Assembly (NCBI GenBank): GCA_010356995.1
Contig: ML996705.1
Location: 558,001 to 622,000, forward strand
Direction: 5' to 3'
DNA from: Trichodelitschia bisporula
Lineage: Eukaryota
DNA: 64,000 nucleotides
The notes below the pieces were generated by a model that was given only the letters and a program-made list of their open reading frames with translations, searched no databases and was not told the origin of the DNA. The position numbers and the translations under genes were made by a program. Below, in pieces: positions 42,944-64,000 of the stretch (positions are counted from its first letter, which is position 1; every line of letters begins with the position of its first letter).

Positions 42944-45214
42944 TTTGGTGGTTGGGATGGTGAGGTTGGTAAGGAGGTGGTTGTAGTTGGTAGGTGGTGA
43001 GGTGGAGAGGTGGTGGTATGTTCTGGTGAAGTATGTGCTTGCACAAAACGTAATCGATATCGAAGCCGAAAAGAGTGACGGCCTGCGTAAAGAGCGAGTG
43101 ACAGAGATCGAATCCAAGTGAGCGTGATTGCGTTCCAGCGGAAAAAAGACTCACACGAAGCCGGGCGACACCGCCCATTTACATCCCCTCCGTCGGGGGG
43201 AGGCTCATTTCCCTCACCCCACCGCGCCCGTACAGACCTCCCAGTCATTTCCCGCAAAACAAGGGACGGGTGCCCAAACAAGGGGCGCAGCGGAGCGCCG
43301 CCGTCCATGGGCCCAAACAAAGCGCGGTCCGCCTCCCGCCCTGTCCACACAAAGATCCCTGACTCCAGTGGGTTCATTGGTCGAGTGGACGCCGTTTTCG
43401 GGCTAGTCAGGTACGCCGCGGAGGCTGGAGTGAAACGGCGGCGATGGGTGGGCCCGCGCCGCGAGTGAGGGAGTGGAGCGGAGATGGCGCAGGATGCAAT
43501 CGATAACCCGCAGCGACAGCGCATGCGTAGCGGCGCGATCGCATCGCACCGCATCGCGTGAAGGATGGAGCCGCGATGGAGCCGCGCTCGGTCGGGTCTC
43601 CACAGAAGCACAACGTCAACCGACCTCGCCTGACTGCGCACACAACCCATTTCCGACTCCGAACCAAACGCCCAACCCCCCCCCGGCTCTCAGCGTCTCA
43701 GGTGTCTCCAGCGCCTACGCCGCAGCAGTGACTCGTACCAACTTACCGCGGGCCCGCCCAGCAAACTCAACCCACGAAATGGCCGGCCAATGTGCGATCG
43801 ACGTCATCTCCGGTCCCAGGGCAATCCGCGGCCCGGGCACTCGCACACCCTCATTGACCGAGGAAGTGCAGTCGACGAATCGTGGCCCCTCCCCGAGCGG
43901 GGGGAAACGTGGTTAGGGCCGGGGGAGGGATGGGGCCGATCTCGGTGGTGGTGTGCTGGCGCACACCTCACCTTCACCGGCCTTGTGGGCATGGTAACCA
44001 TGGTGCCACGGCATATATCCAGCCGCCGCGAGAACTGCGTGCGCTGTTCGTATCGCATTCCCCCTCAGCACAGCAGGTGCAGGAACTCGCGCCGCCCGCT
44101 CTAGTTCTACAGTTCGGAAATGCGCGAGTGCGACGCCGTGACGGTGCACCAGGCACGGACGGCGGAGGTGATTTGCGCGGGGCGGGGATGGCCCGGTTGT
44201 AGGTTCGGTATGGGTAGGGGTTTGTGGGTTGGGGCCGAGATGGTTTACGGCGCGCCGGTTGAGTAGTCTGATGCTGCGGGAAGGAGTCAGACGCGGAGAC
44301 CGGGCCGGTGGGGAGGGAGAGGTGGGGTGAAGGGTGAGAGGTCGGGGACGACGTTGAGGGTCCGGCTTCGGCGTAGTCAGGTTGCGACGTCGTCGGTACG
44401 TAGACGGTGAGCGATGGCAGGGATATCGCGTGCGCAACTCCAAAAAGCGAGCGCTCAACATGCACTCTAAGCGTGGAACACACATGGAAAACCTCGAAGC
44501 GCAAGCAAGGGGTACACATTCGCACCGCACTGCACACAGATCCCTAGGCATATTTTTCCGGTCCCCCACTGTCGTGCTCCCTAGGCACCACCATACATAC
44601 GAGCAGCTACCTCATTCCTACATCCGGACTCGGGCAACAACCAGCCGGATACGAGCCCAGCATCACATCTATCATAATTCTACCATAGCACTCTATCCAC
44701 CCCCGCCGCAAATCGTAAGCGTTACGGCAAGGCAACCAGCCCTATTACCAGACCTCGCCCCCATGAACTCAAGCGCTGGGCCGTCGCCGGAAGTGTGGCC
44801 TGTGCGGCGCGCGTTGCCGTTGTGATTTCGGCGGTGCTCTATGCGGTTGTTCTATGGAGTTGCTGCTTCCGGCGATATAGTGAGATGTTTATGCGGGCAT
44901 TCCCCCGCCTGTTATGGGTCTGTTGCGGCGCAACGGCGAGCTTGCTTGCGCGGAGCCGGTTTGTGATGCCGAATTTATGCACAACTATGTTGTGATATGT
45001 GCTGGCTGCTATTGTAAGCTCGGTCGTTGTTGTTGCTCTATGGTGGGGGCTGAGGTCGTGAGGTTCGCGATGGTGATTATGCCAAAAACAAAGACGTCAA
45101 TCGCGCAATCCCGCCACATTCCCCTCCTCAAAGCGCAAAAAGCTGTCACATACGCCACATGTTACGATCAGACAAAGAGAATGGTCAAAGAAAAAAAAAA
45201 AAGTATAAGGGCAT

Positions 45215-45307
45215 TGAACCCGACCCGACTTGAACGGATAACCTTCTGGAGACTCGTCGTCATTCCATTTGCTGGAATCAGATGCGCTACCGTTGCGCCA
45301 CGGGTCC
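45215..45307 (-). tRNA. tRNA-Trp(CCA) with 21-nt intron (45251-45271)
   Basis: Minus strand reads GGACCCG TG GCGC AACGGTA GCGC A TCTGA TTCCAG^T CCAGA AGGTT ATCCG TTCAAGT CGGGT CGGGTTC A; T12 terminator downstream (A run 45191-45202 on plus). Confidence 0.92.
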
Positions 45308-45867
45308 AATTTTGATGACAAAAAAGGTGTTAGGCATAATGTTAAATGCTTATTAAGTGTTCAACCAGTGATGTCAGCGCCTTCCTCCCATGAAAGACCA
45401 AGGGCTAACCAAAAAATGTCATGCCGCCCCGGCGACTAGTTCTAGCCCTCTGCCAAATTTTGGAGAGAGGAGGACATGACTTTTCCAGGTAGCCCTTGGA
45501 GGTCTGCAAGATCCAGTCCTGTCGTTCTTTGACGGGCGGAGGTCCGTACTTAACGTCTTTCAGAAGTTCATTGTCCGTTGCCATGAAAGGCATATTCCGC
45601 ATCATTCAGGTCAATTCCCTTCAGCGATACACACGCTCTAGATTCCGCATCCCGCGCTAGCCAACTTCCAAGGTTGAACTGTTGATCGACACCTCCAGCT
45701 CGCTGCAGGCGTGACATCACCACAAACGCCGCGCAGCATGAAAGGCCGCGCACCCGCAGCGCCGGTCCGCGGGAAGCATTTGAACCTACAAAGAACTTCT
45801 CGGGCACTTGCAAACACGCCTCGGACACCTACATATCTCATCTCAAACCTCATACAAACACTGTACC

Positions 45868-46200
45868 ATGCCATTCCTCCGCCTCATCCCCGTCCGCACC
45901 CTCCGCACCCTCCGTCCCCAACCGCGGGCCCCACGCTATCTCCAGTCTCGCGCGCTGTCTCTCACCCCGCGCTGGCAACTGAAAGAAGACGGCGACCGCA
46001 GCCCCGAGCAACTTGAGAAGAAGAAGCAGGAGCAGATCGAGAAGCAGAAGAAGGGGGAGGGGCATTGGCATGAGGAGCTGGCGAGCAGTGGGGAGACGGC
46101 GGTGAAGGCGGATCGCGAGGATGTGGATGATCATGGGGAGCATGTGGAGAACTTGCAGCAGGAGACGGTGGAGCAGACGAAGGGGGATAAGGGGCGGTAG
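45868..46200 (+). CDS. Small fungal protein with mitochondrial-presequence-like N-terminus
   Basis: Arg-rich, acid-free leader RTLRTLR..RALSLTPRWQLKE, then motif KQEQIEKQKKGEGHWHEELASSGETAVKADR. Confidence 0.78.
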   Translation: MPFLRLIPVRTLRTLRPQPRAPRYLQSRALSLTPRWQLKEDGDRSPEQLEKKKQEQIEKQKKGEGHWHEELASSGETAVKADREDVDDHGEHVENLQQETVEQTKGDKGR

Positions 46201-47563
46201 ATGAGGTTGGGTACGGCACTGGATTGCAGTACCAGGGGGCAGAGGTTCTTTGATTTTGGTTTGGAAGACCTCAGCGCGATGAGCCAAAGTCCAAAGCGGA
46301 GCCTTTTCAATATGAGCAACATAGACAGAGACTGTCGTTTTCCCTAGCTACCGCGCCGGACGGACCCTTCCCCCTCGGGAGGAAATCCGATATCCATGGC
46401 GCAACAGTCTTGTCTGGGTTGTTGATGTTGAACAGGCATCGCTTTGGGTTTTGGCCCGTCTCGTTCAAGTCTTTCGAATCAATGAGACTCTGACATACAT
46501 CCGTATAGGAAAGTGATTGGAGGGGATGGGTTGCTTTTGATGGGGTTTGCTGACAGATCCGACTGCTGGTTGGAAGGTGTAGAGTTGCACATAGCACCAT
46601 TGCACGCGATCACCGCCGTTGGCGAAGGATAGGTTCTTGCCATTTAAACGAGAGTCGATTTATCACCAACTGTTGCACTACTTGACTTGCTCCTTGAGTC
46701 CTCAGCTATGAATCCTTGAAGGCCCGCATACATCTGTTGTCTCTCCCAACGGAACCATTCGCAGCGAAAGTCAGGACGTTTATAAATTAAAAGTCGAATG
46801 GATTGACGAGCCGAAGTAAGAGCTGGCTTTTCGCCGACAGGACATCCAGCATTTGCCGAGAGCAGCCGGGAGCGGAACTTGCCCGCCTCGCGTGATGGAC
46901 ATCTAGAAGCTCTCCAGAGACGGCAAGCGGTAGACTATGGAGATGAAGCGGGTAAAATCCTGGATGCTTGCGTCGACACAGCTTGCACTCCATAACCATG
47001 AGCAGAAAATAGATGACTGCAGAGCAAGGCGTGTCAACACCTGTTTTCGTAGCAAAGCCGAGGGGTAAGCTGCAGCAAGAACTAGGATTGTTTTTGTTGA
47101 ACAGCAGAGAATGACGGGCGAGAGATGGCAAGCATCAGTCAATCAACGTTTCGATCCCATCCTGACGACTCGCTTTCTAACGTCGATCTGAGAGGTGAAG
47201 CAACAGACGAGTCGCTGTCGGAGAGTTATTGTCACCGTCGTTTGTCATCGCCACAGTCGCGAACACCAGCCACGTGCGTGCACGGCCACGAGTTACCTCA
47301 CTGTTAGCCAATTCCTGGGCCAAGTGCAAAAGGAGCAACTTGTTCCTCCTCTCTCTCACCGCGACTTCCCTTTCAACCCACAACTATCACCGAAATAAGA
47401 CGCACAACGCCATTACTCCCCGCTACTGCTGGCCGACCACCTCCCGGGCCATCCTCATTCCTCTCCGCCTCCTACATCCTCCACCAACCGCCGGTTCTCA
47501 CCCATCCAACCTCCTTCCTCACCCATCCACCACCAAACCCCACATGTCACTCCATTGAGAGCC

Positions 47564-49757
47564 ATGGACCTCTCCCCCAGTGGCGCCTGCGCCCGCGGGT
47601 TGGCTGCGCCGGGCCAACGACACACAACGCACCTCACCAGCAACGGCACCGCCAGCACCACCCACCCGCCAGCATCAGCACACGACCCGCGCACCGCGCA
47701 CGCCGAACCCGATCCATCATCCAGCGCGCCCAGATCACAACAAGGGCAAGCGGCGTCATCGCATCAGCAGCCGCAACAACAACAACAACAACAACAACAA
47801 CAACCACAACCCTCTCACCAACGCACGCACTCCCCCCCCCCCCCCCCCCCCCNNNNNNNNNNCAACCCTCTCACCAACGCACGCACTCCCCCCCCCCCTC
47901 ACCCTCCCACCCAAACCCCCACCGGAGAAAACACCTAGTAGGAGGCAGCCGCCTCACCCAGCGCACCGCCTCCGCGCGCGCCCTCTCCCGCGCCGCCTCC
48001 CAGTCCTCGATCCACCCGCCCACGCCCAGCGGGACACACGTGTCCTTCGCCCCTCCGCTGCACGCACGCACCGCCTCCGCAAACGCAGCCTCCGCGTCCC
48101 CCAGTCCGCGTCCCCAGCCCCCCCAGGTGCGTCGGAATGCCTCCGTCCTCGTAGCGCCGCGCACGAGCAACCTGGCCGCCCTGAAGCGCAACGCGTCGTC
48201 CGGGCAGCTGCCGCGCGCCGCGAGCCGCTCCGCGTTGGCGAAGAAGCCGGTTCAGGCCGAAGCGAGTACCGAGCCCCCGCGGCCGCAGCCGACGGTAAGG
48301 TTTGCACTGGGCGAGGATAAGAATAGCGACGAGGAGGATTCGGACGACGGGTGGACCGAGGAGAGCGCCTCGCAAGGCCATAATAGTCCCGAGGCCACGC
48401 GCCGCAATTCCATCGCCGGCGGTGAGGCCATGCGCATTGCTGCTGACATGCCCTCGGAACCCGCTGAGCCGGCACCGCCGGCGCCCAAGCGCATCGTGAG
48501 CGACACGCCACGTCTCGCACCGCCGCTGCCGAATCAATCCTTCCTTCCCCGCACCGTGTCCGCCGATGTCCTCACCAGCCGCCTGCTCTCCCGCACCTCG
48601 AGCGCTACATACGTCGCGCCGCAGCTCAGCATCGTGTCTGCAACCGGCGTGCCTCTCCTCCACGGCTCGACCCTGAACCACACGCCCCAAACCACCGATT
48701 CTTACCCTCCTGTCCCGAGCGGGTCTTCAGGCCGCGACCTCGTTTCCCGATTCATAACCCCCGGCACAGGGAGCGCCAGCACGCGCAGTCCTCACCTGTC
48801 CAAAACGCCGCCTTCACGCACCAACATCTCTCCTCCACCGCGGCAACCGAAATCGCCAGCCTCGTCCCATCCACCTGGAGCGGCGCTGAGTCTCCCCCCG
48901 AGCCGGACACAGAAGAAGTTACTCCTCCAAAGAGCGAGCTCGAATCTCGAACCACCGCGCCAGGGCGTAGTTCCGGCTATTCTACCGAGCGGCAGGCCAG
49001 GCGCAACCAAGCTCCTCCAAGCCCACCAAGCCCAGGCCCTCGCCGCGAAGGCCTACGCCCAAGCCCAAGCCCAAGCCCAGAACGGCGATGACGGTGCGGG
49101 GGGTCTTGGGATTGTGGGCATGCCGGGGCCTGTCAATGCTCCGGGCGCGGGTGTGGGCAGGCCGATGGCGGGCGGGATAGTACTGGGTGCGGGAGGCTTG
49201 CCGGGGGTTAATCTCCCCGCGCAGATTAGAGCTGTGTTTGAGCAGGCTGGACGGCAGTACGGTGTTGTCCGCCGTTTTAGGGATCCGCTTAGGGATGCGG
49301 TTGCGCGGATGGGGGTGGGGGAGGAAGACGAGGGGAGTGTGAGGACGGAGAGTACGAGGGCGGGGAGTGAGAGGACTGTTGTGGAGGGGGGGGGGGATGG
49401 GAGACGCCAGCAAAGACCCGTGCAGCGCGGCAGCGTGTATCCGTCGGCGGTGGAGAGTAGGCCGGGCACGGCGGCGGAGGAGGAGCATGAGCCGCTGCAT
49501 CGGCCGGGTACGCTTACGGCACCGCAGATGCAGGGGCGGCAGCAGCGCCGGGCTCCGAGGGTTAGTTTCGATCTTCATCCGAGTAGTAGGGCGAGTGAGG
49601 AGGGGGATGATGATAGTGGGGGGAGTACGNNNNNNNNNNNNNNNNNNNNNNNNNNNNNNNNNNNNNNNNNNNNNNNNNNNNNNNNNNNNNNNNNNNNNGG
49701 GATGGGGGGGAGGAGGTTTGTCGCAGGCTTTGGGGGTTGGGGATGGGGGATGGGTGA
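47564..49757 (+). CDS. TCO89: TORC1 subunit Tco89-like protein (interrupted by two assembly gaps)
   Basis: RKHLVGGSRL, LKRNASSGQL, SRTQKKLLLQRASSNLE, YGVVRRFRDPL; probable end EEVCRRLW..TGA at 49757. N gaps at 47853-47862 and 49630-49698. Confidence 0.72.
47774..47803 (+). repeat. (CAA)10 microsatellite encoding polyQ
   Basis: Direct reading of the sequence. Confidence 0.9.
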
Positions 49758-50368
49758 TTGTTTGAGGGGAGGATAAGAGCGAGCATTAAGGCATTGGGAG
49801 GAGTGTGTGTACATGGTGTCTGTCGTGTACTGGTCGTAGTATCGGTATCGGAGGGGGAGGAGAGGAGAGGAATGGTAACAGTCTTATAGGGTTAGAGTCA
49901 TGGTTGTGTTGAACGGGTACGGTGTATGTTCATCCAAGCATTGCCAATGGAGCTGGGTATGGTATGATTGCGTCAACATCAACGGAGGTGCATATCTGGT
50001 CCGGTGTTCCCCAAAGCTTATTCTTCATGTCTGTTGTACTTAGTCTTAAGGCTTAAAAGGGAGTGATGTTGTAGCTTCATCCAAGCAATCACATCACCAA
50101 CAGAGCTGCATGCATATCCGGTGTCTCAAAGCCTAGCATTTCATATGTCCATCGTGCCCCAAGCCCTACTCCAAACTCTCATCCCCAGGAACAACATCGC
50201 CGCCGTGGCTGGCGACGTAAACCACGCCCCCCATCCATCGCTCGCTCTATAGCGTACCCAACACGATACAATAAACGCCCGCAGTATGCCGCTCAAACAT
50301 CCGCAGCCGTCACCCTCCAGCTCAGACTTCTTCTCTTCCACAGCGAGGCAGGCCGCCCGCGACCTCCC

Positions 50369-50370
<2 letters not shown>

Positions 50371-50416
<46 letters not shown>
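50371..50416. repeat. Poly-C/poly-G homopolymer, about 46 nt
   Basis: Uninterrupted C run on the plus strand. Confidence 0.9.
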
Positions 50417-50419
<3 letters not shown>

Positions 50420-50619
50420 ATTCCCCTCCCTTCCACCTGATGCATGCTTGCGCAGCGAGGGCGTAGCACAACAGTAAAAACTACCATTCAACCCACATAC
50501 ACAACCCCAAACGCCTTATCCCTTCCCAAGCAAAGGAGCATGCTAGATTCCCAACTCCGCTTTTGATCCATTCGGCAGCCGCATTCCCTTCTCCTGCACA
50601 AACACACACCGTCCCGAAC

Positions 50620-52529
50620 TCACACATACTCCGGCCAATAATTATACGGCATCAAAGCAGGGCCCCTCCAGCGCTCCCCATACGGGTTCACCCTCTGCCC
50701 CGCAAAGAACCCATCGTGCGCGTGCTCGATGACGGCCATCCAGGAGGAGGGCTCGGGGTGCTTCAACCACTGCGACCACATTAGCCCCTCTTCTCAAAGC
50801 TTCAAACGCAGCACCCCAAAAGGGCAGAAGCGCAACGTACCTGGTTATGCACATGATAACTCCAACTCCCCCTATAGAAATTCTCCAACGTCCGATTATT
50901 CGCCGGGAACTTATCCTCGCTCACCACATACTCTCCAATCGCCCCCGCGCGCCGCAGCTCCGCCTCCTCAGCACTCGTCGCCGCGAACGAGTCCGTAGGC
51001 TCCGGTTCCGGGGCGGTAGGTGGATTCGCCCCCCTCCTCCTAAGCCCGACGCGCGTCGGCTCGTGTTCCGTCTCAACCGGGGGATCATAACTCTCCCACT
51101 CATCCTTGACACTCCCGACCTTGCCCTTAAACGCCGCGCCATAGTCGCGCAAACAAGGCACCGTACACCGCCCCTCGCGATCCCAATTAAACTCCGTCCA
51201 GAGCGGATCGAACACCGCCGTTTCGAGCATGAGCAATTCCCCATCACGGCCATCCTTCCACGCCATTCTCCCAACAACCCTAGGATGGAAGTTCACGCCC
51301 ATGCGCACGCCCCCGCGCAGCAGGTAACTCGACAAGCTCGAATTGGCAGAAAGGGACAGCACAGCCGTGTTATAATCCCCCGGATGACTATGCGCCGCCC
51401 AGCGCTCCGCAAACGCATGTTCTCGCGGCAGCAGCAGCGGGCGCATATCCCTCAGCAGTAGCACATCCATGTCGAAATACGCGCCGCCATGCAAGTGCAG
51501 AACCACGAAGCGCACGGCGTCGGAAACGGCCTGCGGGAGGAAGGTCATTTGCTTGGGCGTGAGGACGAGCCACTGCTGCCCGGACGCATCCTCCACAATA
51601 CCGTCCGCGACAATAAGCTCGCCCTTTACATTCTTGCGCTGCGGCGCCTTGTAGTACCCGAGCCCGTCGGTATGATCCTGCCCCGCGGGGAGCGGGATCC
51701 GGGAGGGGAATTTCCACGTCCGGAGCACGACATCCCCTCTTTCAACCAGCGGTAGGAACCGCGCAAAGAGCGCATCCTTAGTGAGCATCTTCTCCACCGC
51801 GCCGGGGATGTTATCAGCATCGAGCCAGATGTTCAGCTGCGAGCAGGCGAGGTTCTGCGTGTACAGGTAGCTCTTGACGAAGATCTCGAGGCGCCACGTT
51901 GCGGGGCCGGTCCAGTATGTGTGGTAGGGGATGATGGGGCCGGGGCACGTGCCGCGGCTGGTTTTGTTCGGGGCGGCGTATGGCTCGTAGTGCGGGAGCG
52001 TGTTGGCGTGCCCGTCTGCGTTGGCGTATTCCGCGTTGTGCGGGTCCTGCGCCGAGGCGCGGTCGGCTGGGGGGGGGAGGTGGAAGTAGCGCTCGCCGCC
52101 TTCGGACAGGAACGTGAGGCAGGCGTGCACGTTGCGCATCTTCTCGAGCCCGGCATACGTGCCGCGGCATTCTTCGACGAGCAATTTCAAATCCGCCTCT
52201 GTATCCACATGCGGCCGGGGACCCAGGTAATCATCATGCGGGACGACGGCCGACTTCGGGCGATTAAACACATTCGCGTGCGGGTTTATCGTGACCGCAC
52301 TAGACGACGCGGCGAACTTGACCTTGACGCCGGCCTTGGTCGTCTTGAGTATGTCGGCTGGGCCTGATTTATCCAAAAAGGCGGGGATGCCGAGTTTGCC
52401 GCGGACGTTGGCGGGGCTGCGGGCGAGGATTATGATGCCGAGGATGAGGGCGTGGAGGAGGGCGGCGAACGTTAGGTTGCGGAGGAGGATGAGGATGTTG
52501 CGCAGCCGGGGGCGCGCGTCGGGGGACAT
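50620..52529 (-). CDS. GT32-like (DXD) glycosyltransferase, type II membrane protein; 2 exons
   Basis: N-terminal TM anchor; YHTYWTGP; SDAVRFVVLHLHGGAYFDMDVLLLRDMRPL. Intron 50770-50840 adds WLKHPEP..NPYGERW..WPEYV*. Confidence 0.85.
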
Positions 52530-53082
52530 GCTGTCATGCGAGGGGGGGGGTGGGCAGCGGGGGCTGCAAGATGGTTGTTTGGTGTGTGCGCTGCGAGACG
52601 TTGAATGCAGATGTTGTGAGATGTGGTCGCGTTGTCTAGCCGGAGGGATTGAGGATTGCGTGTGCTTGTTGTAATGGTGGTCGCCGTTTTGACTAGCGTG
52701 GAGGCGAGGGTGGAGAAGAGGAAGGGTTCGGTAGCGTGAGGCGAAGCGAAGCGACTTTTAGGGAGAGAGGAAGAGAGAAAGGGACCTGCGAGTTGGAGGG
52801 GTTGGAGGAGTTGGAGGGCTGCAGCGGCTGGCAGGGCCAAGCTCGTGGCTGGCTGCAAGCTGATGGAGGGCGGGCGAGGATTAGGTACAAAAAGTATGTA
52901 CGGCGTTGCGGATAAGAGTACGAAGTTGAGTGTCGCGGCGTGTCAGAGAGACGGGAGAGGGAAAGCTGATTAGCAAGAGAGCGTGTAACAGTAGCATAGA
53001 CAGAAGAAGGAGAGCAATTGGACTGCAAGAGTCTCGAATAAAGTGAGCTTAGGTCTCGTTTGAGGGAGTGAAGTACGAGAAG

Positions 53083-53112
53083 GAAGAAGAAGAAGAAGAA
53101 GAAGAAGAAGAA
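53083..53112. repeat. (GAA)n microsatellite
   Basis: About 10 GAA units. Confidence 0.9.
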
Positions 53113-53286
53113 GGAGAAGAAGAGGAGAGAGGAGAGGGACTGGGGAAAGTGAGGAGAAGGGGACGAGAGTTAGGGGGGGCGGAGTTGCGTGGGTGGTGGG
53201 CGAATTGAGAGTGGAGCGGAGCAGAGGAGTGGGGGCGGCCAGAGGAGAGGAGAGCCTTGGCTTTGGGGTTGGTCTCCTAAATTGGC

Positions 53287-53531
53287 AGGCAGCCAGGCAG
53301 CCAGGCAGCCAGGCAGCCAGGCACACTTGGCAAAAAGTCTTTGTTCCTTTTTATTTCTGGACTGCAGAGATGTGAAGATGTGACGACGTGACGATGTGAC
53401 GATGTGACGATGTGACGATGTTTCAACCTCCCGTCATAAGCTTCAACCACAACGCGATGAGATGGACAAACGGGACGGCAACGACGGCAAGATGGCCACG
53501 ACGGCTAGATGGCCACGACGGCAAGATGGCC
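53287..53531. repeat. Minisatellite cluster: (AGGCAGCC)4, (GATGTGAC) about 6.5 copies, 17-mer ACGACGGCAAGATGGCC x3
   Basis: Arrays at 53287-53318, 53369-53421 and 53481-53531. Confidence 0.88.
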
Positions 53532-53984
53532 ACGACGACAACGCCAACCTTATGCCTCTCTTTATCGCTCCCCGCCAACAACCCAGAAGTCATGCCCTCC
53601 ACACAGTATCGTCCAACCCGGTCACCCATCCCCCGTCCTCGCCGCCATCAGCAGGCCGAAAATCCGCCAGTCCCAGTCACAACCGCATCGCTTAGCCCCC
53701 CATCCCGTATTCTACTAACACGCGTACCCCACCGTCCACTTCGTATGAGCGGAGTATACTTCGTCCCAGATTCTGCCTTGCTTGTGCTCTGCGACAGAAA
53801 ATGCGGGGACGCGCACGCTATCGACGCGTCCAGCAAAGCGGCCGCAGCTAGCTTTATGTCCAACCGTGTGTGTGTGTGTGGATCACGGTATCCGACGTCA
53901 ACTGTCTGTGAGACGTGAGCGCCGTTGCAGCAGCGTCGCGACACAGCAGCGAAGCGCACAGTGACGGACATGGCAGGTCATCGC

Positions 53985-54156
53985 ATCCTCCCATCTCGGC
54001 GCTCTACTTAGAGAAGGCACACAGAGTGCTCGGCATATCACCCGTAGCACACTCGGATCCTGCACGATCCTCCCATCTCGGCGCTCTACTTAGAGAAGGC
54101 ACACAGAGTGCTCGGCATATCACCCGTAGCGCACTCGGATCCTGCGCGATCCTCCC
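53985..54156. repeat. 82-bp tandem duplication
   Basis: Copies start at 53985 and 54067 with two mismatches; ATCCTCCC recurs at 54149. Confidence 0.92.
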
Positions 54157-54711
54157 CCCAAATCCTCTCACTCTATCCTATCACCACCAATCCTTCGCAC
54201 ATGGAATAACCGCAACCTGCATACTGTCAAATCCCCTTGGCATAGATTGACCCTATCGCAGACTCTGACGTGCGATAATCCTCCGACCGCCCACTTATTG
54301 ATAAGAACATTCGGCCTGCGCAAACTGGGCATATGCAAGGCACGTCAGTTTCCCACACAACCAAACCTGCATGACGCTGTCCGCTCAACAAGGCACTTTG
54401 GCATACGACCAGTCTGGACCATGCACCATATTGCACCTTCATAACCTTAAATGGCCTCGACGCCCCATGGCGAAATTGCGTTCAATCAACACACCAAAGT
54501 CTAGCCGCGGCTAGCTATGCGAGTAGCAACGCCATCACGTGACCATTTCGATGGGAGCATCACCATCACGTGACGCCATTCAGAAGATCAGAAGGCTGAC
54601 ATTCAACTTCAAGCTTACTACACAGTACAAACTACAAAATCCCCCTCCAACAGCGAATCATTTACAAAAGTTTTTGACAGAAAAATATCCACCCCACACC
54701 AGACGACCCGC

Positions 54712-55236
54712 CTACTGCGCCTCCACCTCAGGCACCTCCTCCTCAACTTCCGGCTCAGCCGCCTCAACAGCCGGCTCATATGCGTCCTCAGCCTCATTCT
54801 CCGGCTCGGGCCGTTGCTGCTGCGGCCGTCCCTGCTGCGGGCGCCCCTGCTGCGGGCGCGGCTGATTCTGCCACTGCGGGCGCGGCTGGTTCTGCGGGCG
54901 CGGCTGGTTGCCGCTGCTCGGCCACGGGCGCACCTCGATGGTGACGCTGTCGTCGCTGTCGTCGTCGCGGCCGGGACGGCCCTGTTGAGGACGTCCCTGC
55001 TGGGGGCGGCCTTGCTGGGGACGACCTTGCTGGGGACGGCCTTGCTGCACGTACTCCTCGTCGTCGTCGTCGCGCGGTGCGCCGCCGCGGGGAGGACCGT
55101 TGCGCGGCGCGCCGCCGAAGCCGGCGAAGCCGCCGGGGCCGCCGAATTGGCGCGCCACGAGGGTGGAGGAGGACTCCGGGGCGGGGAGCGCGGTGGCGGC
55201 GCTGATGGCCAGGGCGAGGGCGAGGATGAAACGCAT
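54712..55236 (-). CDS. Secreted low-complexity protein with QQGRP and NQPRPQ repeats and acidic tail
   Basis: AAAATG start, signal MRFILALALAISAATA, propeptide LPAPE..LVAR, 15-nt repeats with synonymous variation. Confidence 0.85.
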   Translation of the reverse strand: MRFILALALAISAATALPAPESSSTLVARQFGGPGGFAGFGGAPRNGPPRGGAPRDDDDEEYVQQGRPQQGRPQQGRPQQGRPQQGRPGRDDDSDDSVTIEVRPWPSSGNQPRPQNQPRPQWQNQPRPQQGRPQQGRPQQQRPEPENEAEDAYEPAVEAAEPEVEEEVPEVEAQ

Positions 55237-56767
55237 TTTGCTGGTTGGTTTGAGGGTTGGGTGAATGAGTGGATTGGGTTGGATGAAAGAGTGTGGTGTT
55301 GTTGGTTGGTGAGTGTGGGTTATTGAGAGTGGGTGAGGGGGGTTTTATGTCGCTCGCTCTCAACGGTTTTGCGGTTGTGGAGTGAGGGGGCGACGTACAC
55401 TTACAGTGGCGAGCTTGCGTCCGTGAGAGGCTATTGTGGTTCCAGCTATTATTACTTCATTCCACGGACTGGGCGCTGCGCTTTCCACCTGTTGCGTGCG
55501 CGGGAGGGGGTGCGTGGCGCGTTCGCCAGAGTGTATTGCGCTGACGGCGGGTGTTAGATGAGGGGAACCAGTGGACGGGTTGGCGGGCGGCATATTGGGA
55601 TGGGGGATGGGGTGTGGGGTGGGTTGAGAGCGGGGAAGTGGCGACCTGTTTGCGTACGATGGTCAGTCAATGAGGTGAGAGAGGGGTCAAACCTCGTGCT
55701 CGGTTTCTCCGAAGGATACTTTCCGAGAGTACTTTCGGGATGGATGGAAGCAATCTGGTTCCTGACGCAATATCTGGTTCCTGACAAGCTCGCCACCCGT
55801 GCCTGGCGATGCCCTTCTTTCCTGGCACGCTGTTGCGCCCTGGCTTCTTCGCCTGTGCTCCGGCCGGGAGATCGTGTGTCGGCACAAGCTGGCGGGGAGT
55901 TCGGGTTTGGCGCGGCAGTGACTCGCTTTGCTGGAGTGTGAGGCCACAGAATGCATCTAATGCACCAAGTGTAAGCCGAATCCAGGTCCCAAATCTCGAG
56001 GTAATTCTTAACTCAACTCTTGACACCACGCAAAGCCTTTTGGCACCTCTTCGCTCTGCCCTACGACCAGGTACGCATTCCCGGATTTCCCGGGTCCGCC
56101 GCCGTGGCAATAACGCGGGAAAATGGTCTGGGCACGAGCGTGATATTGCTGCCGGTCTGGCCTCACCTCGACCCGGCGCACATGTCAGCCGCGTGGCCTG
56201 GCTAGAACTAGCCCTGCGGACGGAATTACGTGCGTGCCAGCATCTCCGCATATCGTGGCTGGGCCGGGGCTGGGCTTAATATCGACGTCGTGCCTCGCTC
56301 GCCTCCACCACGCGTCACACGAGAATAGTCCTCGCTCGGGAATTAGCCCACTCGTCTGGTTTCTATTCTGGTCTCGAAACACGCCACGCCATGGTGGTGA
56401 CATCGTGTACTTCGTGTTAGCGGCTCGTCTGTTTCTTCGATATGTATATGCCGACCTATGGCCCTGGATCGAGAGTTGTTCGGCGTCGGTGGTAGAGTGC
56501 CCAGGGTCTGGGCGCGGCCTCCGCGCGCACTGAGCGGATTAGGGTTCCGCGCTGTGCGGACAGCGGAAGCATTTCGGCTCGCTTGGTTAGCGGATGGAAA
56601 GTGAGAGGGGGATTGCGCGGATTTGTTTCACGCGGCCTTCTCCACATCGATCGGGCAAGCGGGTGGTGGGGGGAGGGGGGGGTATATATCCCGCCCTGCA
56701 CACGAAGCACGAAGCACCACCCACCACACACTCCCTTTCTACTACCAGCAAAGTCAGCGAAGTCAGA

Positions 56768-57494
56768 ATGAAACTCACTCTCCCCCTCCTCACTCTCTTC
56801 GCGTACGCACCTCTCTCTCTCTCTCTCTCTGTAGAACCCGACTAACCGAAGCAGCGCCCTCGCGGCCGCGCACGGCCCGGACGGAGATGACGACCACGCT
56901 CCTGCGCCGGTTCCTACAACGACTACGACGCCGGCCGTGGTTGTGAGGCGGCATGGCCCGGACGGCGATGATGATCACGCGCCGGTGCCTGCGCCGGTGA
57001 CGACGGCTACGCCCGCGGTTGTAGTGCGGCGACACGGGCCGGACGGCGACGACGACCATGCCCCTGCGCCTGTGCCCGCCCCCGCGAACACGACTACGCC
57101 GGCGGTTGTAGTGCGGCGACACGGGCCGGACGGCGATGATGATCATGCCCCTGCACCGGTGCCCGCCCCCGCGAATACGACTACGCCGGCGGTTGTTCGG
57201 CGGCACGGGCCGGACGGTGATGACGACCATGCCCCCGCTCCTGCGACTACGGCTACCCCGGCTGTGGTGGTACGGCGGCATGGGCCGGACGGCGATGATG
57301 ACCACGCTCCGGCGCCGGTGACACCGGCTACGCCCGCGGTTGTGCTCCCTGCGCCGGTGACGACGGCTACGCCTGCCGTGGTTGTGAGGAGGCACGGCCC
57401 GGATGGAGATGACGATCATGCTCCGGCGCCTGTGCCGGCGACGCCTGCGCCTGCGCCGATACCCACGACGCTGGTGCCTGTTGTGAGGCGCTGA
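56768..57494 (+). CDS. Secreted Kex2-processed repeat precursor (7 x HGPDGDDDH units separated by VVRR); 2 exons
   Basis: ATG 56768, intron 56803-56854 (GTACGC..ACTAAC..CAG), signal MKLTLPLLTLFAALAAA. The peptide core is invariant while codons vary synonymously. TATATA at about 56683. Confidence 0.88.
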
Positions 57495-58028
57495 AGGCCG
57501 GGATTGTGATGAGAAAAAAGGCGCGAAGGAACTGTAATACTGAAGTTTTGAAGTAGAAGACAAAGAGAGGAGAGGAAGAGAGGAAGAGACTTAAATACAC
57601 GATGCCGAGTATCCTCCTTTGCTCTTTCCCTCTGTCATGCGCTCATTAAATCGTGTCCCTCGATATGCCCCTTCCTGACATGACAATGCTCCTTTCATCT
57701 CCACAGCAGATTGAATGGGGAGGTCTGGTGGAGATAGATGGTGGGAGATGCTTGTTGAGGGTGGAGAACGGCGGAGAAGGTGACTGAAGCTTGAATGTGT
57801 CAGCCTGCATTCGACGATGTTGAGTTCGGGGATGCGCCTATTCCATCATACACGGCTTATGGGCTCGGCCCGCACTTTGGCTTCACGTTCCCGATGCCGT
57901 TACCTACGCCGCTTCGAGATAACCCGGACTCGCCGATATCGCAGGCTGCCCTGAGTGTATCTATTCATCCACAGCCCATCAGTTCGGCCACCTCAGCCTC
58001 TTATTCTCATCACCGCCTCCCCACCACC

Positions 58029-59044
58029 TCACTCCCACATCTGCCTAACATTCAAATTCACCCTCTTCCCCCCCATCCATCCCCTCCACGCCTCATACTC
58101 CGCCTCCCTCCCCGCCGGCCACTCCCCTAACTCTCTCGGACACGTCCCGGGCACCACCAGCGGAACCCCATGCCAGGCAAACCGCGCCGCACCCGTCATA
58201 TACACCGCATCGCCCGACCTCAACCTTACGGCGATAGCCTTATTCCCCTCGTCCCCCTCCTCGACCCCCACAACAAACACCCCCTCACACCCCACACTAA
58301 CACTCACCAGCCCCGCCCCACACTCCTCGCTCACATCCCGATGCAGACTCAGCGTATCCCCGGGGGAGTAGAAATTCACAATCGCAGCCTCGGGTCTAAG
58401 TGCGGGATACAAGCCCGTCAACAAAGCCGCGATATCGGGCGGGAAGGGAGGAGGTGGGGTGGAGGGGTAGCGCTTTGCGGTCCAGTCATATTGCCCGCCC
58501 AGCGTCACCCAGCGCAGTTTCTTGCGCAGAAACGTCCCGTACTGGAGCGGCTTGTGCAGACTCGCGTCGAGCGGGGGTAGAGGCGGGGCCGAGCGCGGCA
58601 AGGCGAAGAAGGAGGTCCCGCTGGAGGGGAGCGTGTAGTGTAGGTGTGTGTTTGTGCGGTGGACGGGGTTGGAGAGGTCCCGGTGGAGGAGGCGGGTGAG
58701 AAGGGTGGTTTGGATGGCGGGGGGGAGGAGGGAGGGGGTTATGTAGAGGCCTGGGATGTTAGCTGGGGCTATTAGACAGTAGATATTGGAATACCTGGTA
58801 CAGAGGGATGCTCCCACACCGGCGCATCATCCGTCTCCCCCGTCCAGTCCTCATCAAACGCACCGAAGACCTCGCGCAGCCGTGACCCCTCCACCGTGCC
58901 TACGCACCGCATCCCGTGCGCCTCGCCGCGGGGATCGACAACCAACTCATCGCGCTCCAGATCCTCGGCTGGCAGCTTCACATATCGTCGGTAAAGCTCC
59001 TTAAACGCATCGGGCGGCTTCGCGTGCGGATCGAGGTGTTCCAT
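58029..59044 (-). CDS. AlkB-family (ALKBH1-like) 2OG-Fe(II) dioxygenase; 2 exons
   Basis: LRWVTLGGQYDW, EAAIVNFYSPGDTLSLHRD (HxD), WHGVP, RVNLNVRQ. Intron 58751-58794. Confidence 0.92.
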
Positions 59045-59175
59045 AGTGCTTGTTCGCCGTTACGCGGAAATGTCGTGTGGCGCGGCGCGGCGATCTGCGC
59101 GGCCCGCAAACTCGGCGATCGATCCAGGGCAGGCCAACCGCGCCGAAACCTCACTTCAACCACAAATACACCACA

Positions 59176-60237
59176 ATGGCCACATCACGAATCGCGCGGC
59201 CGCTGGCCAGACGGCTCAATGCGCGCCATGTGCTATCTACGCAGGCGACTCCGCTCCGCGCGTTTTCCTATGCGCTTCCTGCGCGCTCAGAGCAGCCCCC
59301 GCGCACGACACACTTCGGCTTCGAAACCGTGCCAGAGGACGTAAAGCAATCGCGCGGTACGCTCCCCAATACCCCCCCCCTCATCCATCCCTCCTCCCTC
59401 CCTCTCACCTCCTACTAACCCCCCCCCCCAGTCGCCTCAGTCTTCTCCTCCGTCGCCACATCCTACGACACCATGAACGACCTGATGTCGCTGGGCATCC
59501 ACCGCCTCTGGAAAGATCACTTCGTGCGCGCCCTCGACCCAGGGATAAACCCGCTCATCGCAACCCCGGGCGCGCCTCCTTTATCCATCCTCGACGTCGC
59601 GGGCGGGACCGGGGATATCGCGTTCCGCCTCCTCGAGCACGCGGGTCGGGTACACGGGGATAATACCGCGCGGGTCATGGTTGCGGATATCAATCCCGAT
59701 ATGCTGGCCGAGGGGCGGCGGCGCGCGGCGGGTACGCCGTATCTAAGCCAAGGGAGGTTGGAGTTCGTGGAGGCGAATGCGGAGGTGCTGAGCATGGTCC
59801 CAGACGCGAGTGTGGATATTTACACCGTGGCCTTTGGGATCAGGAACTTCACGAACATCCGCAAGGCCCTGGCTGAAGCACACCGCATCCTGAAACCCGG
59901 GGGCGTGTTCGCATGCCTCGAGTTTAGTAAAGTGGGAAACCCGGTGTTGGATGCTGTGTACAAGAGGTGGAGTTTTGGGGCTATTCCGCTGATAGGACAG
60001 GTTGTTGCTGGGGATAGGAAGAGTTATCAGTATTTGGTGGAGAGTATTGAGAGGTTTCCGAGTCAGACGGAGTTTGCGGGGATGATTAAGGAGGGGGGTT
60101 TTTTGCTTCCTGAGGGGGGCGGGTGGGAGGATTTGAGCATGGGGATTGCGTGTGTGCATAAGGGGATTAAGCCCGTGGAGGAGAAGGTGAGGGCGGAGGA
60201 GCCGGTGAAAGCGGAGGTGCCGCCCGTCATGGCGTGA
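59176..60237 (+). CDS. COQ5: Ubiquinone biosynthesis C-methyltransferase, mitochondrial; 2 exons
   Basis: Presequence, THFGFETV, VFSSVATSYDTMNDLMSLGIHRLWKD, ILDVAGGTGDIAF, YQYLVESIERFP. Intron 59357-59431. Confidence 0.97.
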
Positions 60238-60496
60238 GGGACTGCGAAATGTAATCATATTCCACTGCACATGCGTTTGAACTTAGAAGCCCATCTATAT
60301 CCGCCCATCTAACCCAGCCCAAATCCCATACTAGAACTAAATGTCTCCAACATGAACTGCGCCCTACCGCCTACCTATGCTTTGAACGATGACCCATCAC
60401 GCCTTGCAACCAGCTCTGTGACACCCACGGAAACCCCTAAAAAGATCTCAAATTTTCCACCCCAAGACCCAACCAGATAACACCTAGCCAGAACCC

Positions 60497-61906
60497 CTAA
60501 AGCTCATCATCCTCCTCCTCATCCTCCCGCCCCATCTCACTCGACAAAATCACCCCCTTCCCCCCCCCAGGCGGCAGCGGAATCCGCCACCCCACCAAAC
60601 TCTGCGGCAACGCCCCCCTCCCCTCCCCCAGCAAACTATCCTGGCTCCACCACCACGCCTCCCCTTCTGCTCTCCCAGCCCCAGTCCCTCCAGTCCCACC
60701 CGTAGACTGCGGCGCACTCGACGGCAACTCCTCGCCCTCGGTCTCCGTCTGCGAGGGCGGCGGTGAGTGGGCCGAGGGCGGGCGAGTAGAGCCTGGGTTC
60801 GTGGGCAGCGGGTGAGTGGAGAAGAAACTCGACCTCGGCGCACTCGACGGCGGATAGCTCGGATACCGCGGACTCGCACCCCCCTCCTCCTTCACCGGGC
60901 TCGGCCCTAGATCCGGGACCTGCGACTCCTGGAACCCGGTATCTCGCGCCCTATGTCTAGCCAAATAACTCATCTCCGTCTCGAGCTGCGAGTCTGGCTG
61001 GGAGTCCCAGAACGGGCCCCTCGGCCTGCCGAGCTCATTCCTTCCGAGCTCGTTCCTTGTCAGCTCGTTCCTTGCATGCTCGTACCTCGCAAGCTCGTCC
61101 CTCACTCGCCGCGGCGAGGGCGAGAGGTCCAGCGGTGGTGCTTCGGGGGACACGGAGCTGGGTACTGGGGGGCGGGATGAGAAGGGTGGGGTGCGGGGGG
61201 GTGGGAGCGTGTGTTGCGTCATGAAGAGGGGGGATTCGGTTGCGGCCTGGAGGGCTGCGGTGGCTTGGGTTGCTTCGCCGTTTTGGCCGAGGCCGATGTT
61301 GAAGCGGTCGAGGGGGGGTGGGGGGTAGGATTCTTCGTGCGAGTGGTGCGTTTCGTGCTCGTCGTGCTCCTCGTTGTGCTCCTCCTCGAGGTCCTCGTGC
61401 TCCTCATGCTCCTCGGCATGCTCCTCGTCGTGCGCCATCTCGTGGTCCTTGTTGTGGTCCATGTCGTGCTCCTCGTCGTGCTCCTCGTCGTGCTCCTCGT
61501 CATGCTCTTTCTCACGTTCCTCCCCGTGAACCTCCTCGCGCTCCCGGCCGAGGTGGCCATTAAACCGGGCCGGCGAGGCAGGGCGATACAACGAAAATTT
61601 ACCACGGTCCTTGTCCCCTGCTTCCGAGGGTGAGGATGAAGGTATTTCGGGAAGCTCTATCCAGGCCATTTGCGTAAGGGTAGTTTGATCGAGGGCCTTT
61701 TTGGGCGGGCGGGGGAGCCGGGCGGGTTGTGGTGAAGAGGGCCGGGCGAGACGTCGTGGCTGAACGAAGGGGAGTTGAGTTAGAGTTGATTGTGCTAGAT
61801 CACGGTCGCGCTTTTTAGGTTTGCGTCGCTGGGCGGTGGTGGGTGGTGTGTCGTTCTCGTCGTCGCCGGTGGTGGGGAGGGCGGCGCGCTTGCGCTTTGG
61901 GGCCAT
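60497..61906 (-). CDS. Disordered, probably nuclear hypothetical protein with QxTLTQ motifs and (EEHD)n tract
   Basis: MAPKRKR NLS-like start at 61906, QSTLTQ and QTTLTQ, His/Glu/Asp repeats, SQ/TQ-rich C-terminal half. Confidence 0.7.
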   Translation of the reverse strand: MAPKRKRAALPTTGDDENDTPPTTAQRRKPKKRDRDLAQSTLTQLPFVQPRRLARPSSPQPARLPRPPKKALDQTTLTQMAWIELPEIPSSSPSEAGDKDRGKFSLYRPASPARFNGHLGREREEVHGEEREKEHDEEHDEEHDEEHDMDHNKDHEMAHDEEHAEEHEEHEDLEEEHNEEHDEHETHHSHEESYPPPPLDRFNIGLGQNGEATQATAALQAATESPLFMTQHTLPPPRTPPFSSRPPVPSSVSPEAPPLDLSPSPRRVRDELARYEHARNELTRNELGRNELGRPRGPFWDSQPDSQLETEMSYLARHRARDTGFQESQVPDLGPSPVKEEGGASPRYPSYPPSSAPRSSFFSTHPLPTNPGSTRPPSAHSPPPSQTETEGEELPSSAPQSTGGTGGTGAGRAEGEAWWWSQDSLLGEGRGALPQSLVGWRIPLPPGGGKGVILSSEMGREDEEEDDEL

Positions 61907-62699
61907 GGTTAATATGGTGGTGGGATGCGGCGATACCGGAGTAGGAGATTCAGGTCCAGTTGTGTTAGACGAGGTCGATGGGCAGGGCCGGTGTGAGAGG
62001 CTACACTGTTTGGTGTGACTACTGTGCTGCACTGGAGCTGACATTGATATGAATGAAATGGATTTGAGGTCGTTGGGACGCGCGCCGCGATTGGTCGTGC
62101 GCGTCTCGCGTGGCGCGTGTGCACGTGGCACTGAGGGCTAGGCACATGGAGAGTTGGGGTTTGGGAGGCATAAGATAGGGAAGGAGGTGTTTGGATTTAT
62201 TGAATATGCTTTTGAATGCTTTTTGTGTGGTTTGGCTGGTCTTGTTTGGGGAGATTTTGTTGTGTGTGTTCTCTTGCTGTTTTGGGCGCCAAGTGGGCTC
62301 CGTCGCGGCAAGGCTGATGGATCGGGGACGACAGATCGTGCATTGCGTTGGGGAGTTTGGGCTCAGCCTGCGGGCTGGGAGGAGGGCTTGCTGATATTTA
62401 TTAGAATATACTTCAGTAGTGGGGATGGTTTCCCTTCGTCTTTTGGGCCTTGTCATGATGGGTAGACAGAGATTTCTTGTTAGGCAAATGTCGTCGTGGG
62501 GGGCATCCTCTGCCTTGCGTTCGGCTACAGTGGAGGAATATCCGCATATGGCACACTAGTTTACTACTCATACACTTTATTACTTGCACAGAGACTAAAA
62601 GTACAACGTTTTGACAGTTCGCTCATACATCACTTCCGCTTTCCTCCCCCAAGTCCGGCAAGGGGCCTACCTTTTTAGGCGGGGGTCAGACCCCTTACC

Positions 62700-64000
62700 A
62701 GGCTTCTACTCCGTCTCCGGTTTCTTAAGCCCAAGCATGACCTCCAGGTCATTGCTTAAGGCAGAAATTTCCTCGTTCATCCAACCATATGAGCTCGCAG
62801 CGGGATACGTAATCTCAGATTAGACTCTGCCGTAAAGAACAGCAAACCGGTCATTTATGACCCGTTGCTGAGCCTGGGGTTTAATTCTGCCCCCATTCAT
62901 GAACGGTGCGATTTTTTTGATAAAGTTGAAGGGTATTTTCCTTCCGTTGGGCGACCGTAAGGACTTGCGAGCCAGAAGGCAGCGACCGGCCATCTTCACA
63001 GCCAGCCTTATTTGCATCGCTGACTATCTTCATCAAGAGCCGGCGAGCGTTGTACAAATTGCCGCTAGCATCCTCGAAGGCCTTGCTCGCATTATTGCTC
63101 CTAAGCGCCTGCTGCATGATTTGTTTTATGTCGTTGAGTATTTTCGATGCCTCTCGGCACCGGACTTGCTCATCCTGGACCGTCCCTGCCAGTCGCTTGC
63201 TGAGATTCTCCTTTAGGGCAGCTGTCTTCTGCTGGGCCTCCGTCGGCGGTTTAAAGACAGGCCCCTTACGCTTCTTATGCCTATTTCCCTTTCCCTGGTG
63301 GGGCGTCTGTTGGAGAGATGACTGAGGCGGTGCCGAGCTCGGGCCGCTGCTCCACCCGCTCGCGCCCAACCCCCTGAGGGAGCTGGCGAGCTATGTGGAG
63401 AAGCAGCCGACGGAGTTTCCACCGGAGCAGGCTCGGAGCGCGAGAGTGCTGGAGGCGGAGCAGAGTGAACAGCGGGAGCAGTCTGGCTCCACCTGCTCTG
63501 GCCCAACCCCCCTGAGGGAGCCGGCGAGCGAGCCGGAGTCGCAGCCCGGGATGTTTGCCGAAACGCGCGCTTGGACGCCCACTGGGGTTTAGTGAGACCG
63601 CGGGAAGGAGCAGGTGTTGAAGAGGTTTTCAGCCTCTTACACATCTCAAACTTCTTCTCAGGGTTCATCGTGTGCTTGCTGCCCGCCAGCTGTGCTGGGG
63701 GAGTGCGAGTCTGACGGGCGGGGTCGGCCGTCTGTGAGGCGGTAGTGGGAGTTGGGGGGGCAGGGGCGGGGTCGGCCGTCTCAATGGCGGGAGCGGTCGT
63801 CCGAGGGGCGGGGGCGGGGGCGGCCGTCTCAAGAGCGGGAGCGGACGTTTGAGGGTCGGGGGCGGGTACTGTTATGTCGGGGGCAAGTGTCTGAGCAGTA
63901 GTCGCGGCGTTATTGGCAGCGGAAGCTGGCGTCCGAGCGGTGGTAACCGGGTCGTACAGCCACTTCCCCAGCTTCGGCTTGGCTGAGGGCGCCGGTGCAG
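62700..64000 (-). pseudogene. 3' part of a Pro/Ala/Thr-rich gene entering from the right edge, frameshifted or decayed
   Basis: Frame open from 63998 to 63213; continuation needs indels at homopolymers (about 63370 and 62915) and crosses TAA/TAG stops. Confidence 0.5.

Follow-up and report, generated by a model that had tools for sequence, protein, structure and literature searches.

A gene for a probably secreted repeat precursor in Trichodelitschia bisporula, with seven predicted peptides that begin with the same HGPDGDDDH head

What would a fungus make from a gene that spells the same nine residues, HGPDGDDDH, seven times over? The question is raised by a locus on the + strand, at 56768-57494, of a 64,000-nucleotide (nt) stretch of the Trichodelitschia bisporula genome (GCA_010356995.1, contig ML996705.1, positions 558,001 to 622,000 of the forward strand), the whole of which is called the window here. 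Fungal genomes hold about five Kex2-processed repeat proteins (KEPs) each, and a function is known for few of these: pheromones, repellents, candidalysin and some peptides that are made on ribosomes and modified after translation (RiPPs). The locus is a two-exon fungal gene for a small secreted precursor of 224 amino acids (aa). Three judgements have to be kept apart: that the gene is real is close to certain, that its product is secreted is very likely, and that Kex2 processes it is likely. The function of the released peptides is harder to settle. The best explanation of the whole, put forward tentatively, is a KEP whose heads bind a divalent metal.

A two-exon gene with a coding repeat array

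The gene is built from the following features.

56683..56689, + strand: TATA box TATATAT, 79-85 nt 5' of the ATG
56768..56802, + strand: exon 1, 35 nt, with the ATG (A at -3), the first 11 codons and 2 bases of the predicted signal peptide
56803..56854, + strand: intron of 52 nt, with 5' GTACGC, (CT)10 at 56811-56830, CTAAC at 56842-56846 and 3' CAG
56855..57494, + strand: exon 2, with the last 5 codons of the predicted signal peptide (to 56870), seven repeat units and TGA at 57492-57494

The joined coding sequence (CDS) runs to 675 nt on the + strand of 56768-57494 and specifies 224 aa followed by TGA. It is through the splice joining exon 1 to exon 2 that the repeats gain a start codon and a signal-like N-terminus: without splicing, the frame opened by the ATG closes after 25 codons, and the exon-2 frame has no ATG ahead of the repeats, the list of open reading frames (ORFs) giving only a GTG start at 56937. 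The TATATAT at 56683 is the sole TATAWAW match in 55237-56767, where 0.22 would be expected at the window-wide rate. Opposite the repeat array lies a mirror ORF (56790-57563, - strand, 257 aa, Arg/His-rich), and an intron-blind gene caller could choose either this ORF or the 185-aa GTG-started ORF at 56937-57494 on the + strand.

An intron missed by the ORF list had been proposed in a first, sequence-only reading, and it is borne out: the frame joins across 56803-56854, and contigs exist that lack exactly these 52 nt. Four sequencing runs containing the stretch (X1-X4) were compared as contigs against the window. X1 and X2 are DNA runs, possibly the source of the window itself, and their contigs are continuous through 56803-56854. 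X3 and X4 both derive from a single other sample, which belongs to a different study. In each of them one contig spans 56400-56800 and then 56855-57044, with two record letters between; it is without exactly the 52 nt of 56803-56854 and otherwise identical. The depths of 8.9 and 3.8 that X3 and X4 show in the bin 56808-56858 are merely the four exon bases of that contig, so neither run holds a contig that contains the intron. Microsatellite slippage does not account for the loss, the missing piece ending 24 nt past the CT tract.

Are these contigs spliced RNA? The type of runs X3 and X4 is unrecorded, RNA being only a guess, and the contig extends 2247 letters upstream of 56400 through the intergenic region; both points count against taking the missing piece as a record of splicing. 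Either DNA, or RNA on a background of DNA, may underlie the runs. In the case of RNA the contig is a spliced transcript; in the case of DNA it represents an allele whose CDS is uninterrupted. Either way the joined reading frame exists in nature.

The repeats themselves identify the frame that is read. Back-translated, the nine-residue core matches the 64-kb window seven times, against 0.00 expected (100 shuffles). Selection on a core that stays invariant while its codons differ had been suggested from the letters, and the codon counts uphold this with one adjustment, the invariant block being 11 aa (HGPDGDDDHAP) and not nine. Across the seven copies of the 11-codon head, third positions vary in 10 of 11 codons (at least 13 changes) and first and second positions in 0 of 22, for a mean proportion of synonymous differences (pS) of 0.78 and of nonsynonymous differences (pN) of 0 (P about 2e-9 under a crude uniform-mutation model). 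The five codons ahead of each cut site are likewise conserved (pS 0.62, pN 0.08). Because the third positions of the head vary without amino-acid change, the + strand frame is the one that encodes protein, and purifying selection acts on it; the synonymous sites of the head are near saturation. The mirror ORF was rejected as the gene, as all variable sites are third positions of the + frame. Gene conversion was rejected as the cause of the invariant head, since it would homogenize synonymous sites too.

Precursor anatomy and predicted processing

Residues 1-17 have the look of a signal peptide, with Lys2, Ala at -3 and -1, and a nine-residue-window hydropathy of ~1.9-2.5 over residues 7-13. 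Hydropathy drops sharply right after residue 17, where the first HGPDGDDDH starts, and the 17-aa signal first proposed to stand directly before that head is backed by this profile and by the two alanines. What follows is built to one plan: each of seven units opens with HGPDGDDDHAP, continues as a Pro/Thr/Ala/Val spacer and finishes in (V)VVRR. The cores begin at residues 18, 45, 72, 101, 129, 154 and 192, in units of 27, 27, 29, 28, 25, 38 and 33 aa; RR closes every unit, and the last ends in RR-stop. The seven units, their variable spacers, the VVRR endings and the terminal RR-stop are all found where they had first been read.

56871..56897, + strand: core 1 HGPDGDDDH, directly after the predicted signal-peptidase site
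56946..56978, + strand: RR site 1 (56946-56951) and core 2
57027..57059, + strand: RR site 2 and core 3
57114..57146, + strand: RR site 3 and core 4
57198..57230, + strand: RR site 4 and core 5
57273..57305, + strand: RR site 5 and core 6; unit 6 has an extra coreless half-unit of spacer
57387..57419, + strand: RR site 6 and core 7
57486..57494, + strand: C-terminal RR, then the stop codon

The exon-2 translation, begun at 56856 and used below as the query P0001, has all 14 of its 14 basic residues in the seven RR pairs. The mature part is composed only of P, A, V, D, T, H, G, R, N, L and I, with proline at 43 of 207 residues (about 21%), and Tandem Repeats Finder detects the array with periods of 75-87 nt. 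The AlphaFold model of the protein, with a mean predicted local distance difference test (pLDDT) score of 39.4 and a predicted template modelling (pTM) score of 0.22, suggests intrinsic disorder, as would suit the precursor of peptides better than a protein that folds.

The published definition of a KEP, as given by Umemura 2020 (PMC7329392), takes a signal peptide called by SignalP 4.1 and at least three repeats of at least 8 aa between KR, KK, RK or RR, none of them longer than 100 aa. Here seven RR-ended units of 25-38 aa stand behind a signal peptide recognized by hydropathy and the -3/-1 heuristic, which places the protein, as judged from its sequence, inside that definition; the Kex2-type precursor of the earlier proposal stands in these terms. 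Kex2 is described as taking K or R at P2 and R at P1 (PMC8528282), Kex1 as stripping basic residues, and Ste13 as requiring XA/XP dipeptides (PMC6339444). Behind RR comes H-G at 6 of 6 internal sites, and no Ste13 XA/XP dipeptide is present. Hydrophobic residues at P3 and P4, such as those ahead of each RR, fit the subsite preference of Kex2.

From these features a route can be proposed. The 17-aa signal would take the protein into the endoplasmic reticulum, where signal peptidase would cut after Ala17, and the Thr/Pro-rich spacers would probably be O-mannosylated. In the late Golgi, Kex2 would cleave behind the six internal RR pairs and Kex1 would remove the Arg residues left at the C-termini. 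This would release seven peptides, 23-36 aa long, each with a net charge of about -4 and untouched by Ste13. Every one of them would start with His-Gly-Pro, end with Val-Val-Val and carry a free N-terminal His.

How does this precursor compare with the class? KEPs as catalogued (Le Marquer et al. 2019, PMC6339444; Umemura 2020, PMC7329392) share with it a signal, at least three units bounded by dibasic sites, and a frequent status as orphans. An orphan KEP is expected rather than surprising, because 2560 of the 7878 catalogued KEPs stand alone, without a homologue (PMC7329392). The class is known and very diverse; no match to the HGPDGDDDH head came from the text of the two catalogues or from the supplements searched. 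Precursors of the yeast alpha-factor type likewise have a signal peptide, repeats and the Kex2/Kex1 logic (PMC6339444); here, in contrast, no XA/XP Ste13 spacer follows the dibasic site, and the long units differ in length from one another. A pheromone precursor is for these reasons unlikely.

Relatives of the head

A phmmer search of 1.84 billion representative proteins returned 15 matches at E <= 1e-3, and among them P0016 alone has the same anatomy. This protein of 210 aa, a singleton cluster from a public run assembly, matches P0001 with E 8.6e-4 library-wide and E 5e-11 in pairwise BLASTP. Like P0001 it has a signal-like N-terminus, a dibasic site before an HGPD head, Pro/Ala-rich spacers and a similar length: three KR pairs each stand directly before HGPD(D/G)D(D/E), and all of its Arg residues (3 of 3) sit in these pairs. 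The similarity is weak, and P0016 differs in having KR in place of RR, three units in place of seven, and Met at head position 9 or 10 in place of the second His. It is rich in Met generally (24 of 210 residues, with seven MxxM motifs), with a Met/His-rich stretch from the signal to the first KR and a Met-rich C-terminus. Taking the two proteins together, 10 of 10 heads have their His behind a predicted cleavage site. P0001 keeps the dibasic site as RR and P0016 keeps it as KR, which points to selection for the function of the site. The comparison argues that a free N-terminal His may be what selection keeps.

The best E-values in the same search, down to 6.5e-13, belong to other proteins. P0005-P0008 and P0010 are bacterial, 700-880 aa long, and end in C-terminal repeats of about 29 aa that bear R-H-G-[VIL]-D-G-D-D 4-9 times. 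By Pfam, P0005, P0006 and P0014 are Peptidase_M56 proteins (BlaR1-like for P0005 and P0006), P0014 being without a match to H-x(1-3)-DGDD; no Pfam family covers the 29-aa repeat beyond a weak LRV match. The eight-residue motif is nearly identical to the fungal head and so is the period. In contrast to the fungal protein, the bacterial repeats belong to a membrane sensor-protease, have Ala-Arg before the motif and no dibasic pair, and show a regular hydrophobic pattern with few prolines, a helix-forming look and no Pro/Thr spacer. They were set aside as relatives for this difference of context, and the shared motif is probably convergent. Five further long matches were scanned against Pfam and discarded, none of them having the core motif: P0002 carries a FliK hook-length domain with a weak Lysostaphin_N match, P0009 and P0013 carry beta-propeller repeats, and P0003 and P0004 have no Pfam family.

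Elsewhere the searches were empty. Pfam has no family for P0001 or P0016. In a word-indexed search of 5.8 billion clusters at near lengths, P0001 had no match at E <= 0.01 among 8000 scored candidates; a 47-aa two-head query against longer proteins of the same clusters gave none at E <= 10 among 238 candidates; and P0016 as query found only itself among 1426 candidates. Pattern scans of metagenomes gave 600 and 267 matches, with 0 relatives of P0001 or P0016 among them. The ESM Atlas returned no usable match for P0001, and for P0016 only fungal 'hypothetical' clusters with scores <= 0.80, at chance level. Rfam has nothing in 54000-59000.

The core and four shorter variants of HGPDGDDDH were not found in the literature searched, and the head did not turn up in the text of the two KEP catalogues or in the supplements searched, with the proviso that Table S2 of Umemura, which appears to list accessions without sequences, cannot for that reason exclude a match. 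The claim that the core is not recognizable from any described family stands against Pfam, the literature and the catalogue supplements. A literature search on KEX2 and metal-binding secreted peptides brought up nothing relevant, and neither catalogue mentions 'metal' or 'copper' in its main text (PMC6339444, PMC7329392).

The gene also seems to be unannotated in the deposited genome. A protein with its sequence was not found in a collection of 15 billion proteins, whereas P0017, a neighbour product from the same window, is there in both NCBI and UniRef entries, and it is this pairing that suggests a gap in the annotation. Small intron-containing repeat genes can be missed in deposited annotations, as seems to have happened here. 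P0017 is encoded by a single-exon ORF at 32024-33505 on the + strand; its 493 aa comprise a Big_5 Ig-like domain followed by a pectinesterase domain, and it is the only one of ten window ORFs present in the collection by exact match. The pectinesterase hints at a plant-associated fungus.

Candidate functions and genomic surroundings

Could the heads bind metal? The design is unusually clear, in that all seven heads of this protein and all three of P0016 are placed so that proteolysis would expose an N-terminal His before an acidic stretch. Binding of a divalent metal, which the sequence-only reading had also proposed, is the favoured function of the head, held with reserve as a guess that would more often fail than succeed. 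The free amine and the imidazole of His1 would form a 'histamine-like' chelate, which the imidazole of His9, eight residues further on, and the carboxylates of the four Asp in between could complete. Coordination by backbone amides should be prevented by Pro3, which would leave an exchangeable Cu(II)/Zn(II) site, and the peptides would act as an extracellular metal buffer or shuttle. An N-terminal His, through its amine and imidazole, is described as binding Cu(II) and Zn(II), with the Cu(II) complexes stabilized below pH 6 (PMC10466376), and MXXM and MXM are given as the Cu-binding motifs of CTR transporters (PMC11509074). Copper is favoured because P0016 has Met for His9 and many MxxM motifs. 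A His-to-Met swap with the rest of the head kept is what might be expected of a copper ligand, and provides an indirect hint of copper binding.

The heads differ from the familiar N-terminal sites. An amino-terminal Cu(II)- and Ni(II)-binding (ATCUN) site requires a free N-terminus with His at position 3, and here His is at positions 1 and 9 with Pro at 3. A histidine brace, as in the copper proteins lytic polysaccharide monooxygenases (LPMO) and X325, calls for an N-terminal His right behind the signal peptide and a folded domain to provide the second His; the N-terminal His is present here, but the protein is modelled as disordered (pLDDT 39.4) and belongs to no Pfam family. A parallel is the semenogelin fragment SgI-29, described in PMC10466376, in which proteolysis likewise makes a free His-1 and more His residues follow downstream. 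It differs in being an animal peptide, cationic and unrelated in sequence, whereas the head here is strongly acidic with Pro3.

A broader proposal would make this gene and P0016 members of a class of fungal ribosomal peptide metallophores, in which a KEP precursor serves to mass-produce short glycosylated peptides with a metal site that forms only after cleavage by signal peptidase or Kex2; it is speculative, and should be taken as unlikely on present evidence. The amine and imidazole of His1, a His or Met at position 9 or 10 and the carboxylates would serve in extracellular capture, buffering or delivery of copper or zinc. Proteolysis would create the ligand, and the two genes would be a eukaryotic counterpart of the bacterial peptide chalkophores. 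As an addition to what is known, the protein looks like an orphan of the established KEP class; protease-generated metal-binding peptides would, if true, be new for fungi, and should copper or zinc be bound, they would form the first ribosomal, protease-generated metal-binding peptide set described there.

Several points weigh against a metal-binding KEP. Secretion and cleavage are predictions from sequence features only; the call of a signal peptide uses only hydropathy and the -3/-1 rule, and signal peptidase could possibly cut two residues earlier, at another Ala-x-Ala pattern. The searches yielded no orthologue set for cross-species conservation. The case for metal binding draws on composition and one distant relative, and the D-x-D-x-D pattern could equally bind Ca2+. 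A promoter scan of 55237-56767 found no motif of response to copper, zinc or iron, with neither a copper response element (CuRE) nor a zinc response element (ZRE), GATA or Crz1 motif, though the host's regulators may differ; its four PacC-like sites (1.6 expected) and two Ace1-like sites (1.0 expected) are uninformative for the same reason. The conserved hydrophobic tail P-A-V-V-V and the length of 23-36 aa would also fit wall-bound, repellent-type peptides.

The last of these objections leads to the alternative that survives best: the KEP is cut as described, and its peptides act free of metal, as wall-bound or surface-active (repellent-like) molecules, as signals or as effectors. This is possible, though doubtful. 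The model for it is Rep1 of Ustilago maydis, described as a 652-aa protein with a signal, 12 repeats and KEX2 sites that yield 10 peptides of 34-53 aa and one 229-aa protein (PMC3133707), the peptides forming amyloid fibrils in the hyphal wall (PMC3133707; PMC6339444). In both systems a secreted pre-pro-protein with a signal and KEX2-cut repeats would give peptides a few tens of residues long (predicted at 23-36 aa here) with no Ste13 signature. Each peptide would join an acidic head, a stiff Pro/Thr linker and a hydrophobic V-V-V tail; the stretch ahead of RR is conserved as well (pN 0.08), and the strand-like elements of the AlphaFold model are confined to two V-V-V-R stretches. The pectinesterase-like P0017 in the window suggests a plant-associated lifestyle, in which repeat effectors are common. 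The strongest conservation, however, falls on the charged His/Asp head and not on the hydrophobic part, and a proline content of about 21% disfavours the amyloid that Rep1 forms in the wall. With Rep1 itself compared by description only, 0 of the 15 phmmer matches show repellent anatomy or similarity to a named repellent. Spacers that vary the unit length from 25 to 38 aa are unusual for receptor ligands, XA/XP is missing after the RR sites, and the enrichment of Met and His in P0016 is left unexplained.

The gene's neighbours bear on the alternatives that follow.

54712-55236, - strand: divergent neighbour, a small secreted repeat protein of 174 aa, 1.5 kb upstream and the nearest upstream gene
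58029-58826, - strand: AlkB/ALKBH1-like 2-oxoglutarate (2OG)-Fe(II) dioxygenase, convergent and downstream (Pfam 1e-32; PDB 6ie2, 5e-18)
59419-60234, + strand: full-length Coq5 methyltransferase (PDB 4obw, yeast Coq5, E 1.1e-79)

Is the precursor cut at all? Disordered Pro/Thr/Ala-rich repeats commonly mark proteins of the fungal wall and mucin-like proteins, and this one, with its mean pLDDT of 39, might be secreted whole as an O-glycosylated, acidic, disordered glycoprotein of wall or matrix in which RR is structural or used in part. The divergent neighbour, also a small secreted repeat protein and without dibasic sites, would suit such a reading. It is nonetheless improbable: every basic residue lies in an RR that falls precisely where one unit ends, RR-stop closes the protein, and P0016 retains a dibasic site at the same place as KR. 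The first head abuts the end of the signal, and seven identical free N-termini arise only by cutting; nor is there a hydrophobic C-terminus of the glycosylphosphatidylinositol (GPI) type.

Far less probable is a RiPP precursor, whether of dikaritin/ustiloxin type or of some novel type, which the sequence-only reading had entertained and which finds no support here. A dikaritin/ustiloxin core needs an aromatic residue (Tyr) for cross-linking, and Tyr, Trp, Phe and Cys are all missing from the mature part. Dikaritin and ustiloxin precursors are themselves of the KEP type, and a DUF3328 gene lies near 22% of KEP genes (PMC7329392); genes for a 2OG-Fe(II) oxygenase and a methyltransferase lie less than 3 kb downstream of this one. 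A Pfam scan of 86 of the 88 stop-to-stop ORFs of at least 100 aa in 44000-64000, the other two overlapping the 5' region of the gene, revealed no DUF3328/UstYa, tyrosinase, P450 or other tailoring domain, split exons below 100 aa and DNA past 64000 lying outside its scope. The surroundings give no sign of a RiPP cluster. The adjoining methyltransferase, which matches yeast Coq5 over its whole length, and the ALKBH1/AlkB-like dioxygenase are of housekeeping types, and the units, 25-38 aa long and with variable spacers, do not resemble the short cores of RiPPs.

A non-functional GC-rich minisatellite, open by chance in one frame, would agree with the lack of an annotated protein in a collection that holds a neighbour, with an opposite strand that is open too (56790-57563) and with the finding that no run recorded as RNA contains the stretch, but it is excluded for practical purposes by core changes that are all synonymous and at + strand third positions, by an ATG and signal-like peptide joined in frame by a canonical intron of which an intron-less form exists, by the TATA box, and by a relative of the same anatomy, P0016, elsewhere.

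The remaining surroundings can be described briefly. Upstream, Pfam also identifies a DXD glycosyltransferase-like ORF and a TCO89-like ORF. The protein of 54712-55236 (- strand) begins with a signal-like N-terminus and ends in a Glu-rich C-terminus; it is Gly/Pro-rich, with QQGRP/NQPRP repeats and two patches rich in Asp. Dibasic sites are absent, and a weak 'Pro-rich' Pfam match falls below threshold. The GC content of this region reaches about 0.76, and the X3/X4 contig is common to it and the KEP gene.

On the other side, starting about 80 nt past the stop codon, the segment 57573-57670 occurs in the genome many times over. Its word depth of 23661 in X1 compares with about 183, and that of 28172 in X2 with about 355; many contigs break or diverge there. 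It is present as a single copy in the window, with no inverted repeat and no Rfam match, and could be a dispersed short element. Further upstream, in the intergenic DNA before the gene with the QQGRP repeats, 53985-54156 holds an 82-nt tandem repeat of 2.1 copies at 97% identity, and 53078-53543 contains several short microsatellites.

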